A stretch of 64,000 nucleotides of DNA, from positions 64,001 to 128,000 of the forward strand of contig JAXSPP010000002.1 of assembly GCA_037927135.1 (NCBI GenBank), written 5' to 3'. This document shows, piece after piece, positions 27,240 to 32,440 of the stretch (its first letter is position 1; every line of letters begins with the position of its first letter). The translations under genes were made by a program, and so were the position numbers. Source of the DNA: Candidatus Pampinifervens sinense. GTDB lineage: Bacteria > Aquificota > Aquificia > Aquificales > Aquificaceae. The notes beneath the pieces were generated by a model. The model searched no databases. It had not been told where the DNA came from and worked only from the letters and a program-made list of their open reading frames with translations.

Positions 27240-27312
27240 GGGTCGGTAGCTCAGCTGGTAGAGCAACGGACTCTTAATCCGTGGGTCGAGGGTTCGAATC
27301 CCTCCCGACCCA
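27240..27312 (+). tRNA. tRNA-Lys(CTT), CCA not encoded
   Basis: Acceptor GGGTCGG/CCGACCC, D arm GCTC/GAGC, anticodon arm ACGGA-CTCTTAA-TCCGT, T arm GAGGG-TTCGAAT-CCCTC. Confidence 0.97.
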
Positions 27313-29190
27313 TTTAAAGATGACCACAGCAAGGGGAGGAAGGGTAAGCCTTAAAGAATAAGGCCTATTGTGAAAGGGTATATTTTCTGCGTAAAGGCCT
27401 CCAAAGTTTCCAAGGTTGCTACCACCGTAGAAGTGGGAGTCTGTGTTCAAAATCTCTTTCCAAAAGCCTTCCCTTGGCACTCCAACCCTGTAATCAAAGC
27501 GTGGCACAGGTGTAAAGTTGCATACCACAAGGACAAGGTCTCCATCAGAAGACTTTCTAAGGTAGCTTATTATACTCTTCTCCCAGTCGTGAAAATCAAT
27601 CCATTCAAAGCCCTCTGGCTCACAGTCAAGCTCATGCAAGGCTTTCTCTTCCCTGTAGAGTCTGTTTAAATCCTTTACAAGCCTTTGGATGCCTTTGTGG
27701 CTGTCATAATCTAACAGATGCCAGTCAAGGCTTTCTTCGTGGTTCCACTCCCTCCACTGGGCAAACTCTCCACCCATAAAGAGGAGCTTTTTACCTGGAT
27801 GGGTCCACATGTAGCCAAAGAGGAGTCTAAGGTTTGCAAACTTCTGCCAGTAGTCTCCGGGCATCTTGTTAATGAGGGATCCTTTTCCGTGCACTACCTC
27901 ATCGTGGGACAAGGGAAGTATGAAGTTCTCTGAAAAGGCATACCATATGCTAAAGGTGAGCTGGTTGTGATGGTACTTTCTGTATATTGGGTCCTTGGAC
28001 ATGTAAAATAGAGTGTCGTTCATCCATCCCATATTCCATTTGAAGCCAAAGCCCAAACCTCCTATGTATACTGGTCTGCTTACCATGGGAAAGGCGGTAG
28101 ACTCTTCCGCTATGGTCTGAATGCCTTCAAAATCCCTATACAGACAAACGTTGAGCTTTTTTAAAAAGTCTATGGCTTCCAAGTTCTCCCTACCCCCATA
28201 CTGGTTTGGCACCCACTCCTTCCTTGAGTAGTCCAAATAGAGCATGCTGGCCACTGCATCCACCCTTAGTCCATCCGCATGGTATTTTTCAAGCCAAAAG
28301 TGGGCGGAGCTGAGAAGGAAGGACCTTACCTCACCCTTTCCGTAATCAAAGATGTAGCTGTTCCAGTCTGGATGCCATCCCTTTCTCCAGTCCTCATACT
28401 CATAGAGATGTGTGCCATCAAAGTAGGCAAGGCCGTGGCCATCGGTGGGAAAGTGGGAAGGGACCCAATCAAGGATAACGCCTATGCCTTGTTGGTGAAG
28501 GTAGTCTATAAGATACATAAAATCCTGTGGGGTGCCATACCTTGAGGTGGGTGCAAAGTAGCCCGTTATCTGATAGCCCCATGAGCCATAAAAGGGATGC
28601 TCCATAATTGGCAAAAACTCCACATGGGTAAAGCCCATCTCCTTTACATACTGGGCAAGCATGGGAGCCAGTTCTCTATAGCTTAGCCATCTGTTTCCCT
28701 CTTCTGGTACCCTTCTCCAAGAGCCAAGATGGACCTCATATATGCTTATGGGAGCCTTGTGATGGTTGATATCCTTTCTCTTTTTTAGCCATTCTTCATC
28801 CTGCCATTGATAGCCTATGTCCCACACTATGGAGGCTGTGCCTGGGGGCGTCTCATGGAAAAAGCCAAAGGGGTCTGCCCTGTCTGTCCAATAGCCCCAA
28901 GAGGTGTATAGATGATACTTATACCTTTGGCCCTTTTTTACACCCTCCACAAAGCCCTCCCATATGCCCGAGCCATCCTCCCTTCTCTTCAAAGGCAAGG
29001 AGTGCTTGTCCCATCCGTTGAAGTCTCCAAAGACAAAGACCTGCTTAGCATGGGGAGCCCAAAGGGCAAAGTAGGCACCATCTTCAAAAAAATGACAGCC
29101 AAGCTTCTCATAAAGCCTGCAATGGGAACCCTCTCTAAAAAGGTAGACATCATAATCCGTTATAAGGGAAAAATCGTATAGGACCTTCAT
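27274..29190 (-). CDS. glgB: 1,4-alpha-glucan branching enzyme
   Basis: [39 protein letters not shown]; start at ATG 29190 (track uses 29217). Confidence 0.96.
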
Positions 29191-29200
29191 ATAAAGGATT

Positions 29201-29689
29201 TTACCTTTTAATCTCAAAAACCTGAGGGATCATCAAAGCATAACCTTGAAGTTGCCAGTGTATTATTTCTGTGATGGCGGAAGGCACAAGCTCCACAAAA
29301 GGATAAAAATCCTTTTCAGAGAGGCCGTATATCTGTTCAGCGGCCATCTTACAAACCTTAAACTTAACTCCATACATGCTAAGGTTTTCCATCCTTTCCA
29401 CCATGTCCGCATACTGGTCCCTGTTTTTTATAGCAAATACAGGAAGCTCCCTTCCATGGGAAACAACCACAATGTCTATGTCCTCTGGGCTAAAGTTATA
29501 GGGTGGTTTGGTAAGCACAAATATAACATTAGATATCCAGCCAAGGGCTGGCCTTAGCTTTTCTGGATGGTCAAAGAAAAGCTCATAAACCACCTTAAAG
29601 GGCTTTTGATAAGGCGTTTGGACAAACTTACCATGCGGCTGGGCAAATGATAAAGAAAAAAGCAAAAGTATAAATAATATCTTTCTCAT
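29201..29689 (-). CDS. Secreted DsrE-family protein
   Basis: Signal peptide; [25 protein letters not shown]. Confidence 0.78.
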
Positions 29690-30339: not shown

Positions 30340-30694
30340 TAGAAGTCTTAGCGGAGAGGTGGTAGAACTTTTAGAGGGCTATGCCAAGCTTAGACTAAGG
30401 ACGGATGAGAGAATGGTGGCGGATGATATGGGGCTTGTGCATGGAGGCTTTATCTTCTCCTTGGCTGACTTTTGCGCCATGGCATGCGTCAATGAACCCA
30501 ACGTGGTTTTGGCCCAAGCAAGCATAAGGTTTCTAAAGCCTGTAAAAGTTGGGGATGAGATCTTTGCGGAGGGGAGGATAATAAGGGAAGAGGGGAAGAA
30601 AAGGTGGGTGCAGGTGGAGGTAAAAAGGGGAGAGGAGAAGGTGGCAGAGGGGGAGTTCCTCTGCGTGGTGCCAGAGAGGCACGTGCTATCTTAG
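30311..30694 (+). CDS. PaaI-family hotdog thioesterase
   Basis: GLVHGGFIFSLAD, FLKPVKVGD. Confidence 0.88.
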   Translation: MQLRTHLRIDRSLSGEVVELLEGYAKLRLRTDERMVADDMGLVHGGFIFSLADFCAMACVNEPNVVLAQASIRFLKPVKVGDEIFAEGRIIREEGKKRWVQVEVKRGEEKVAEGEFLCVVPERHVLS

Positions 30695-31569
30695 TAAGAG
30701 TAAGAATAGACTCCCATTTTCCTGGCAAGCTCTTTTAGCCTTTCTATCCTCTTTTCTGTGGAGGGGTGTGTGGAGAAGAGTTCCCATATGCCTTGGCCGG
30801 AGAGTGGGTTTTCAATAAAGAGGTGGGCTGTGCCTTGATTTACCTCTGCGGGTATTTGATAGACATAGTTGTGTATCTTTTCTAAGGCGCTTGCCAAGGC
30901 AAGGGGGTCTCCGCTTATCCTTGCTCCAGTCTCGTCTGCCATATACTCCCTTGAACGGGATATGGCCAACTGTATTATGGTGGCTATGATGGGAGTTATG
31001 ATTATCATGGCTATGCTGGCTATGAGAGAAAGTGGATTGTTGTTATTTTCTCCTTCCCTTGAGTGGCCCAAAAGCAAGGCCCATTGGAACATGTTCACAA
31101 GGTAAGATATGGCTCCAGCTATGGTGGCTGCCATGGTGGCCACAAGCACGTCCCTGTTCTTTATGTGTCCTATCTCGTGTGCCAAAACTCCCCTTAGCTC
31201 ACGCTCGTCAAGGAGTCTCAGTATGCCAGAGGTAACTGCTACCGCACCGTTGGAAGGCCCTCTTCCTGTGGCAAAGGCGTTGGGCTGTTCCATAGGCACC
31301 AAGTATATCTTGGGCTTTGGTATGTTTGCCCTTTGGGCAAGTTCTTCTACCATCCTGTGGAGCCAAGGGGCCTCTTCATAGGGTATCTCCCTTGCACCAT
31401 ACATAGCAAGCACAATCTTATCGGAGAACCAGTAGGCTATAAAGTTCATAATGCCCGCCAGCACAAGGGCTATGGTCATACCCACCTTTCCACCTATAAG
31501 ATGACCTACAAAAAGGAAAAGGCCTGTGAGTGCTCCAAGCAGTATAACGCTCCTTATGGCATAACCCAT
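30691..31569 (-). CDS. htpX: Zinc metalloprotease HtpX
   Basis: QPNAFATG, HEIGH, SRSREYMAD, FSTHP. Confidence 0.95.
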   Translation of the reverse strand: MGYAIRSVILLGALTGLFLFVGHLIGGKVGMTIALVLAGIMNFIAYWFSDKIVLAMYGAREIPYEEAPWLHRMVEELAQRANIPKPKIYLVPMEQPNAFATGRGPSNGAVAVTSGILRLLDERELRGVLAHEIGHIKNRDVLVATMAATIAGAISYLVNMFQWALLLGHSREGENNNNPLSLIASIAMIIITPIIATIIQLAISRSREYMADETGARISGDPLALASALEKIHNYVYQIPAEVNQGTAHLFIENPLSGQGIWELFSTHPSTEKRIERLKELARKMGVYSYSY

Positions 31570-31678
31570 GGCTCACTCATCAGTATCCAAGCCTGTTTAA
31601 ACAGGCTTGGGCTGGGGTATTTATATCCCGCCTTTTAAAAGGTACGGACTGCCCCAGCAGGCGGTATTAGCCCGTACC
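31570..31678 (-). ncRNA. Candidate structured cis-regulatory leader of htpX (unknown class)
   Basis: 10-bp stem 31669-31678/31641-31650, loop complementary to two downstream segments, perfect 24-bp palindrome 31587-31610. Confidence 0.45.
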
Positions 31679-31714
31679 AATTTTATTATATTAATAGCTC
31701 CTTGCCTTTGGATG

Positions 31715-32440
31715 TCAATGCCACAGCCCCAAATAGACCTTCCTGACTACATCCTTTGATAACAGATCCTCCACGTCCCCCTCTGCTATCAGCCTTTCCA
31801 AATCCAACACATATCCTCTTCTGCATAACACCCTTGCTAAATAAACTTCCTGCTCTACAAGAAGCAAAGATATACCTTCTTTAAGGTTTATTTCCCTTAA
31901 AATCTCCCCAAGCCTGTCTGCCACCTTAGGTGAAAGACCCAAAGAAAGCTCATCTATCATAAGAAGTTTGGGTTCGGACATGTAGGCCCTTCCTATAGAA
32001 AGCATCCTTTGAAACCCTCCGGAAAGCTCACCAGCCAGCTTTTTTCTGACTTCGGCCAGCTCAGGGAAGAAGCTATAAACCTTTTCTAGCCTATCTTTAA
32101 GGCCCTTTCGTTTTACGTAAGCTCCCATAACGAGGTTTTCTTCCACCGTCATATCCAAAAAGAGGTTCTTTGTATCGCTTGCAAGGGCTATTCCAAGCCT
32201 TAGTCTTTCATAGGGACTAAGGCTAGAAACTTCTATACCTTTAAATTCTATGCTACCCTTCCATGGTTTTAAGAGCCCAGCTATGGTTTTTAAGAGGGTG
32301 CTTTTCCCAGATCCGTTTGAACCGAAAACTACAATTGCCTCCCCATCATAAAGCGTGAGGTTTATCTCACTCAAGACCAACATATCACCATAACCCACAC
32401 TCAAATCTTCAACCTTCAAAAGCAAGGTACCTTTCACCAA
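31715..32440 (-). CDS. Branched-chain amino acid-type ABC transporter ATPase (LivF-like)
   Basis: GSNGSGKST, LSGGFQRM, DELSLGLSP, LLVEQ. Confidence 0.88.
   Translation of the reverse strand: MVKGTLLLKVEDLSVGYGDMLVLSEINLTLYDGEAIVVFGSNGSGKSTLLKTIAGLLKPWKGSIEFKGIEVSSLSPYERLRLGIALASDTKNLFLDMTVEENLVMGAYVKRKGLKDRLEKVYSFFPELAEVRKKLAGELSGGFQRMLSIGRAYMSEPKLLMIDELSLGLSPKVADRLGEILREINLKEGISLLLVEQEVYLARVLCRRGYVLDLERLIAEGDVEDLLSKDVVRKVYLGLWH

Follow-up and report, generated by a model that had tools for sequence, protein, structure and literature searches.

The structured leader of the htpX gene of Candidatus Pampinifervens sinense (Aquificaceae), located on the minus strand of a 64,000-nucleotide stretch (contig JAXSPP010000002.1, positions 64,001 to 128,000; hereafter the window, in whose numbering positions are given), is compared here with described RNAs of transposons and of bacterial mRNAs. 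We consider it probable that this leader is an exapted transposon RNA module which now serves as the 5' leader of htpX. The closest described system is the omega-RNA of ISDra2, in which the loop of stem 1 pairs with bases just before the guide and stem 4 is adjacent to the guide (PMC10097598). Similar to the ISDra2 omega-RNA, as presented in the available sections of that report, the complete form of the module family overlaps the 3' end of a TnpB-related open reading frame (ORF) and ends exactly at the right end of the element. Hairpin P0 of this form resembles stem 1, its loop being paired to the last 5 nt ahead of the boundary, and the final hairpin, P3, is the equivalent of stem 4. Unlike in the same sections on ISDra2, an additional 70-nt unit composed of helix P1 and a double pseudoknot stands between P0 and the last hairpin, the target motif of the module-bearing insertion sequence (IS) is a Shine-Dalgarno (SD) sequence, and the window copy is a sub-module that lacks the ORF, P0 and the tail.

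The sotRNAs, the PATEs and the HgcC family, which represent 3' ends of IS1341-type tnpB genes, resemble the module in that solo copies of right-end RNAs occur in intergenic regions of thermophile or halophile genomes (PMC4615843). According to the available part of that report, they are archaeal, or are fusions of left and right ends defined by a right-end tetraloop hairpin, whereas the module family is bacterial and contains a double pseudoknot (PMC4615843). Unlike the elements covered there, the module is almost always in sense orientation just before start codons, and at htpX it is a conserved feature of a genus. Neither HgcC nor any other Rfam family matches the module.

The H-type pseudoknot aptamers and ribozymes in Rfam include SAM-II/V, preQ1, fluoride, guanidine-III, pistol, twister and HDV-like RNAs. 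The htpX leader shares with these a compact pseudoknot in which the first loop is 1 nt long and an A-rich strand spans stem 1, conserved junction nucleotides and a position in a 5' untranslated region; unlike them, it is matched by no Rfam model at E = 10 on the right strand, has no expression platform and precedes genes with no common theme. The HDV-like, pistol and twister topologies were rejected by hand, the helix order being different and an Rfam match being absent. The leaders of ompA and aprE carry 5'-terminal stabilising stem-loops of bacterial mRNAs, which are simple hairpins of local origin. The comparison with these is one of possible working: in both cases a stable fold would lie a few nt from the (here inferred) 5' end and be followed by an unpaired ribosome-binding region. 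The htpX leader, in contrast, is a sequence-constrained double pseudoknot of probable transposon origin, and its stabilising effect is putative.

Fold and conservation of the htpX leader

The htpX gene (30691-31569, minus strand; Peptidase_M48, PF01435, E 8.5e-43) starts, by sequence reading, with an ATG at 31569. An earlier note on this DNA had described stems, crossing pairings, a 24-nt palindrome and a TATAAT box upstream of this start, all of which were recovered at their positions on the minus strand. The strand of the structure is that of htpX, because of the G-U pairs, and the placement of the leader on this strand in the earlier note is confirmed: it follows a conserved TTGACA box and lies directly upstream of the htpX ribosome-binding region.

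In the 5' to 3' direction the fold begins with the P1 strand GGUACGGGCU (31669-31678), which forms 10 bp, one of them G-U, with the 3' strand AGUCCGUACC (31641-31650) and encloses a loop of 18 nt. This loop holds the linker J1 (AAUA, 31665-31668; consensus AAAUR), unpaired and conserved in alignments A1 and A2, followed by the 5' strands of two pseudoknot stems: b (CCGCC, 31660-31664) pairs with b' (GGCGG, 31628-31632), and c (GCUGGGG, 31652-31658) pairs with c' (CCCCAGC, 31611-31617), thereby crossing b/b'. Between b and c lies a 1-nt junction, U31659, which is variable in relatives. The P1 3' strand is connected to b' by the variable A/U-rich linker UUUUAAAA (31633-31640), the U run of which is not conserved. 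The 10-nt A-rich strand L3 (GAUAUAAAUA, 31618-31627; consensus RAUAYAAAUA) must cross stem b/b' and may take part in a minor-groove triplex. A possible internal sigma-70 promoter in L3 (TAYAAA) was rejected, since no conserved -35 box occurs at 17 bp. Hairpin P3 (31587-31610), a perfect 24-nt palindrome of 10 bp with a UUAA loop, starts directly after c'.

The architecture is that of an H-type pseudoknot with stems of 5 and 7 bp. Its first loop is a single nucleotide and its third an A-rich stretch of 10 nt; P1 closes the long middle loop, and P3 is immediately adjacent to c'. A hairpin at the position of P3 is found in all copies, with variable sequence. The window version resembles the right-end hairpin of the TnpB elements of the same genome (GUCUGUG-UUAAAG-CACAGGC), and P3 appears to correspond to the right-end, guide-adjacent hairpin of the transposon form. 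Nested minimum-free-energy folding of 161 nt gave -53.6 kcal/mol as compared to -41.3 +/- 3.9 kcal/mol in shuffles (z = -3.1).

Homologues were collected with BLAST and then with covariance model R1, and 107 of them were aligned (A2), giving 97 distinct rows. Alignment A2 is fitted to P1 and not to the pseudoknots, and related sequences inflate shuffle tests; weight was put on counts per pair rather than on shuffle percentages. Among the distinct sequences, 95.8% of the cells of P1 and both pseudoknot stems are paired, versus 73.3% in shuffles and 37-54% with slid partners. All ten pairs of P1 covary, with changes on both sides. At pair 19-66 of b/b', 87 sequences have CG, 10 have GC and none has a mispair, and three of the seven c/c' pairs covary (26-82, CG 92 and UA 4; 27-81, UA 76, CG 18 and GC 2; 32-77, GC 75 and UG 14). 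Variant classes with these swaps are found inside one genome. The double pseudoknot proposed in the earlier note is thus real, as every helix is supported. Of the six pairs which had been assigned to b/b', five hold and the sixth (U31659-A31633) does not: it shows no covariation, the U position being T, C, A or G in relatives, and the helix is therefore described here as 5 bp with a 1-nt junction.

Sequence comparison of 21 distinct htpX-linked copies showed identities of 0.96 for b and c together, 1.00 for b', 1.00 for c' and 0.92 for L3. P1 has an identity of only 0.56 among these orthologues, yet 19 to 21 of the 21 are paired at each of its eight inner pairs. The linker (identity 0.69) reads CUCAGGAAA, UAAAAAA and the like in orthologues, where the U run is absent. 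The third codon positions of htpX itself have an identity of 0.595 (13 sequences). As judged from these alignments, the htpX module is shown to be under strong purifying selection within the genus, at the level of the RNA or of the top DNA strand. That the pseudoknot stems are invariant while P1 covaries freely points to either a protein partner or tertiary contacts that depend on sequence.

The module family and its TnpB transposon

Model R1 gave about 385 matches (150 listed and 235 more unlisted) in 111 of the 148 genomes of the order, distributed by family over 64 of 89, 44 of 50 and 2 of 8 genomes, with 1 to 33-35 copies per genome. The window copy, whose sequence is itself in the seed, scores 85.9 bits (E 3.4e-21) and has P1, b/b', c/c', L3 and P3 in the family order; that it belongs to this transposon-linked module family can be stated with high confidence. 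Its genome holds two copies, the second of which precedes a DeoC-type aldolase gene. This second copy (G000:C6:57191-57266, plus strand; the gene is of the DeoC/LacD type) is orthologous in at least two other species, and just upstream of it lies a stretch complementary to the 5' strand of P1 (GGGAAAG...CUUUCCC) that could compete with P1. A search with the exact core as pattern found 60 stretches in the species collection, mostly in Aquificota, with others in a Thermosediminibacter litoriperuensis isolate, in Thermodesulfobacteriota and in Desulfurobacterium; one Thermosediminibacteraceae genome carries nine copies. The same pattern had no matches in viral contigs.

An ORF starts on the same strand within 55 nt downstream of 123 of the 126 distinct elements. 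The 124 downstream proteins match 140 Pfam families, among which M48/HtpX occurs 20 times (mostly in one genus), MreB, HPF and pyridine-nucleotide oxidoreductase four times each, and no other family more than four times; aldolase, Hfq, FtsH, IF3, TrpRS and others are also represented. In the genome with 35 copies, the genes behind the module encode, by reading of the translations and with partial confirmation by Pfam, ribosomal proteins, EF-Ts, RpoA, Rho, Hfq, FtsH and enzymes of central metabolism. A metabolite riboswitch was dropped as a candidate after this tally. Rfam 15 gave three chance-level matches to the window element (E 0.9-8.8, far below gathering scores) and none to the long forms at E <= 0.1, and the absence of a match to a known riboswitch or ribozyme in the earlier note holds in this respect. 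In the literature searched (supplements not covered), no description of the motif or of a TnpB element that targets SD sequences was found, and a search of PMC11109978 by terms gave no matches. Two points appear to be absent from this literature, i.e. an IS that targets the spacer between SD and start codon, and a guide-RNA sub-domain that is retained as leader of a host gene; such loci may be among the candidates tabulated in PMC4227106 and PMC8632094, and the motif is not proven to be unpublished.

In many Hydrogenothermaceae copies the conserved region continues 5' of P1, and in four copies of one genome at least 700 nt upstream are shared and coding. The ORF matches TIGR01766 (TnpB-related, IS200/IS605) with 58.8 bits at a cut-off of 32, stays below the cut-off for guided_TnpB (NF040570; 48 against 100) and has weak Pfam and PDB matches to Cas12f/TnpB over the part from RuvC-II to NPxYTS. 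The zinc-ribbon cysteines are absent from the stretch of the protein that was read. There is no adjacent tnpA, and the element is therefore assigned to the IS1341 group. After the RuvC motifs follow ca. 250 nt of conserved non-coding RNA, consisting of P0, CUAUG, the module (P1 to P3) and then UUGACCAGG, right after which similarity between copies ends. The CCAGG tail can base-pair with the P0 loop, which reads CUUGG or CCUGG; the module-less TnpB elements of the window's own genome have CAGGG in the loop and CCCUG in the tail, which amounts to two compensatory changes. Because this layout matches that of the ISDra2 omega-RNA, the module is part of a bona fide omega-RNA, in which it separates P0 from the last hairpin. 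The P0 marker is present in 28 of 131 elements (two look like false positives) and the ACCAGG tail in 26, whereas CCAGG occurs in only 7 of 103 short forms; these tail counts come from a pattern that missed GACCAGG variants visible in the sequences.

Some variation within the transposon forms was also seen. In the C-terminal, post-RuvC part of the TnpB ORF, three of four copies in genome G038 have a 30-nt in-frame insertion of a repeat like CACGTCTCAC. Some long forms carry an extra long hairpin (AAATCGTGTTTCAAAAC...GTTTGAAACACGATTT) before or after P0, so the omega-RNA of this clade tolerates modular insertions. The own genome of the window harbors two intact TnpB-like ORFs (G000:C9:3143-4246, minus strand, and G000:C5:75368-76429, plus strand), open over 489 and 514 codons and 47% identical to the module-bearing clade. 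Their left flanks read ...TTAC followed by C and ...AGAC followed by C at the junction, and this module-less sister IS seems to use a different target.

The insertion site of the module-bearing IS is best seen at hslU. In two species of one genus the empty site reads ...GAAGATTAGGAGG, then CCAGA or TTAGA, then a TTG start codon. A third species has the insertion (G038:C1) right after an identical GAAGATTAGGAGG: it opens with the left end TTCACAACAGTTGC... of the IS, continues through the TnpB ORF, the omega-RNA, the module and P3, and closes with ...GGTTGACCAGG, i.e. with GACCAGG at the boundary, after which TCAGA leads to the start codon shared with the other two species. The IS thus carries the module along, and it inserts without target duplication directly 3' of the GGAGG SD. 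The alternative that the IS merely inserts beside pre-existing modules was rejected for hslU on account of the empty sites. The insertion places the terminal CCAGG of the IS at SD distance from the start, and this CCAGG replaces the SD of the host gene. The left junction reads (A/G)GGAGG or AAGAGG in ten further IS copies, which come from two genomes, and in long forms the start codon lies about 2-9 nt after ACCAGG. The family, of ca. 2.1 kb and with TnpB as its only protein, is found before ftsH, hslU, lexA, trpS and other genes; the sense position just before start codons is attributed to the insertion specificity of the parent IS and not to a shared regulon. For ppa and tsf, synteny gave no empty site, the flanking genes being elsewhere, and the leaders alone are comparable: in the sister species ppa, tsf, htpX and hslU stand behind plain GGAGG leaders. 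Upstream of the short copies, SD-like GGAG/GAGG/AAGG motifs are enriched just before P1 (48 of 103 versus 28.4 +/- 4.0). Such left ends could have arisen by a deletion adjoining the target motif or through a miniature element that inserted there.

Origin of the htpX copy and competing explanations

The window copy is a short solo form with no ORF, no P0 hairpin and no CCAGG tail, and it is not located at a tnpB 3' end. The 17 nt after P3 (AUACUGAUGAGUGAGCC, 31570-31586), which by sequence reading contain a weak purine-rich ribosome-binding region of htpX, are similar to the degenerate tails of other short copies, and such tails may be degenerate versions of the long-form tail UAACCAGG. The htpX leaders of 14 genomes from five further genera of the family are free of the module, as is that of one species of the same genus; one further htpX locus was mislocated and left out of this comparison. 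These module-free leaders have a TTGACA promoter, a length of ca. 35 nt and GGAGG 6-8 nt before the ATG. Since the outgroup leaders lack it, the module at htpX is a derived insertion in the genus; that an IS was the vehicle at this site is argued from analogy and from the module-free outgroup leaders, because no IS-bearing htpX allele was seen. Of the 24 genomes of the genus, 23 have the module and 9 have the TnpB clade. Across the order, in a cross-tabulation made by hand from two tables, 62 module-bearing genomes have no TnpB match and 11 genomes have TnpB without the module. The constraint on the htpX module is independent of the transposon protein.

These comparisons do not support the view in the earlier note that the leader is dedicated to a membrane-stress protease. 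The element is not specific for htpX, because copies are dispersed, the same module occurs in the right end of a TnpB transposon, module-free htpX leaders exist in other genera and in one species of the same genus, the downstream genes are diverse, and at hslU the module was inserted with an IS. The features of a dispersed repeat or mobile derivative, i.e. multiple copies, absence from orthologous leaders and linkage to an IS, are all present; the earlier note had itself regarded a dispersed repeat as evidence against its proposal. Of its overall interpretation, the conserved structured leader stands and the htpX-specific attenuator does not.

In the origin that we propose, the module of ca. 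100 nt would be the 3' part of the omega-RNA and right end of a TnpB-only clade of the IS1341 group of IS200/IS605 elements from thermophilic bacteria. The IS or a miniature derivative would have entered the htpX leader in an ancestor of the genus. Everything 5' of P1 (the TnpB ORF, P0) and the CCAGG half of the guide-adjacent pseudoknot are absent from the htpX copy, and the remaining module has been kept by purifying selection as the htpX leader, transcribed from a putative promoter just upstream that was read manually. This full chain of events is held slightly less firmly than the exaptation as such, though still as rather likely.

Several observations weigh against this account. No IS copy was seen at htpX in any genome examined. 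The omega-RNA ends of the own genome's TnpB elements consist of P0, the right-end hairpin and the CCCUG tail without the P1-pseudoknot unit, and because this sister omega-RNA lacks it the module is an accessory part; it could even be that the IS captured a host RNA at the deep origin of the module. Of the 11 genomes of one genus, ten have the TnpB but not the module, and no TnpB of the clade occurs in the two genomes that hold the most short copies (35 and 18). Searches for a Y1 transposase came back negative for the own genome and for two genomes that carry near-identical copies of the IS in large number. In the 35-copy genome there is a single Y1 transposase gene of 140 codons (G088:C1:726113-726469), which is not beside any listed module copy; a REP/RAYT-like relation is conceivable. 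Identical P1-to-c' sequences combined with a different P3 occur in one genome and are unexplained by simple IS decay, and the CUAUGG junction of the long forms is not enriched upstream of short copies (8 of 103 versus 4.6 +/- 2.0 in shuffles). At the level of expression, the stricter rule of the pattern scan found no promoter in 31450-31850, and among three hot-spring metatranscriptomes and one contig set, a single run contributed 2 partial reads, neither of them on the element. Finally, the role in mRNA stabilisation or translation that is discussed below is argued from position and conservation.

Among the alternatives, an independent cis-regulatory sensor, i.e. a riboswitch for a global signal or an RNA thermosensor that was picked up or used by the transposon, is unlikely. 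Its conservation is aptamer-like, with invariant pseudoknot stems, conserved unpaired J1 and L3 and a covarying P1; genes for proteases, stress and translation (htpX, ftsH, hslU, hpf, infC, trpS, hfq) recur downstream in distant lineages; the module persists without TnpB; and its occurrence is restricted to thermophiles. However, the spread of the 124 downstream genes over 140 Pfam families reveals no metabolic theme, and an expression platform is missing. The pattern scan of 31450-31850 found no intrinsic terminator or attenuator, P3 being followed by purines, and the covariation-supported model leaves the ribosome-binding region, situated 3' of P3, unpaired, unlike in an RNA thermometer that sequesters the SD. 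The same two results, no terminator and an SD outside the fold, leave the new attenuator of the earlier note without support. Moreover, sister species express ppa, tsf, htpX and hslU from plain GGAGG leaders, the module at hslU arrives as part of an IS, and subfamilies of identical copies in one genome look like amplification. The leader is probably not a switch operated by a ligand or by temperature.

It is less probable still that the short copies are selfish or inert DNA, either non-autonomous miniature transposons or right ends in decay, with folds that count at the level of single-stranded DNA and without an RNA function at htpX. An inert relic should decay, and a still-mobile copy should vary in its presence at the locus, whereas the pseudoknot at htpX has identities of 0.96-1.00 next to silent sites at ca. 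0.6, and this conservation holds in a genus in which 15 of 24 genomes lack the TnpB clade and in which the window's own genome has no Y1 transposase match. What such a reading would explain well is the range from 0 to 35 copies between close relatives with subfamilies within one genome, the enrichment of SD-like motifs before P1, as expected for insertion after a target motif, and the resemblance of P3 to right- and left-end hairpins of the IS. G-T pairs would be tolerable in the top DNA strand too, and intergenic IS1341 3' ends and PATEs are known in archaea, as the available part of the literature describes (PMC4615843).

A role as guide RNA, in trans or in cis, by which TnpB or a nuclease-dead TnpB-like protein would use the ribosome-binding region of htpX as guide, is highly improbable. 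The two intact TnpB-like ORFs of the own genome would supply a protein, the complete IS form would have its guide in the bases that follow the tail, and RNA-guided repressors derived from TnpB have been described, according to the accessible part of a recent report (PMC13622181). The window copy cannot be a TnpB guide RNA, because the TnpB ORF, P0 and the CCAGG half of the guide-adjacent pseudoknot are absent. The P0 loop and the CCAGG tail are the two halves of that pseudoknot, which for ISDra2 is the conserved core recognised by TnpB in the sections available (PMC10097598). In addition, 15 of the 24 genomes of the genus keep the leader without the TnpB clade, and the omega-RNAs of the own TnpB elements do not contain the module. 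A terminator of the upstream liv-type transporter operon, to which the UUUU after P1 in the window might point, has practically no chance of being correct, given an 18-nt P1 loop, a negative pattern scan, the absence of the U run in orthologues and the presence of the element before genes whatever lies upstream; the earlier note had been right to see more than a liv terminator here.

Promoter region, possible role and implications

The gene upstream of the leader encodes a livF-like ABC ATPase (31715-32440, minus strand), named by reading of its translation. It ends 36 nt before P1 with a stop codon at 31717-31715, which is overlapped by a -35-like TTGACA (31713-31718) found by manual reading. 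This box is aligned at the same place in most of 13 orthologous htpX-linked leaders. A -10-like TATTAA (31691-31696), again a sequence reading, lies 16 nt after TTGACA, whereas use of the TATAAT at 31690-31685 would give a spacer of 22 nt. The transcription start site of htpX may be at about 31684, ca. 6 nt before P1. Elsewhere in the window, a 647-codon ORF resembling glycogen-branching enzyme (27274-29217, minus strand) has a C-terminal end that presumably resembles a frame running into a tRNA gene; its true stop codon, or a neighbouring tRNA, may have been misread.

With this promoter, the exapted module would at present be active constitutively: as a highly stable fold at the 5' terminus, it would protect this end of the mRNA and keep the ribosome-binding tail unpaired. 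We propose such a function in stabilisation or as translation context only tentatively. A broader interpretation is possible but rather doubtful: that a guide-RNA sub-domain has become a free-standing, TnpB-independent device that actively controls how long mRNAs last or how well they are translated at high temperature, perhaps upon a signal, in the leaders of housekeeping and stress genes of thermophiles, and that it was multiplied in some lineages, with an undescribed SD-targeting TnpB IS that brings its own replacement SD as parent. If this is true, an SD-targeting IS with a replacement SD can sit before essential genes, and insertion between SD and start codon together with SD replacement would explain why insertions are tolerated before ftsH, hslU, lexA and trpS.

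What looked like an orphan riboswitch would thereby become a case of a transposon RNA exapted as a host leader, in which selection is visible helix by helix. The module also represents an unannotated RNA family of several hundred members for curation of the Rfam type, and such curation would prevent GC-rich leaders of Aquificota, Thermodesulfobacteriota and Thermosediminibacteraceae from being misread as new riboswitches. Engineers of thermostable guide RNAs may take an interest in the compact, evidently very stable double pseudoknot and in its TnpB partner.

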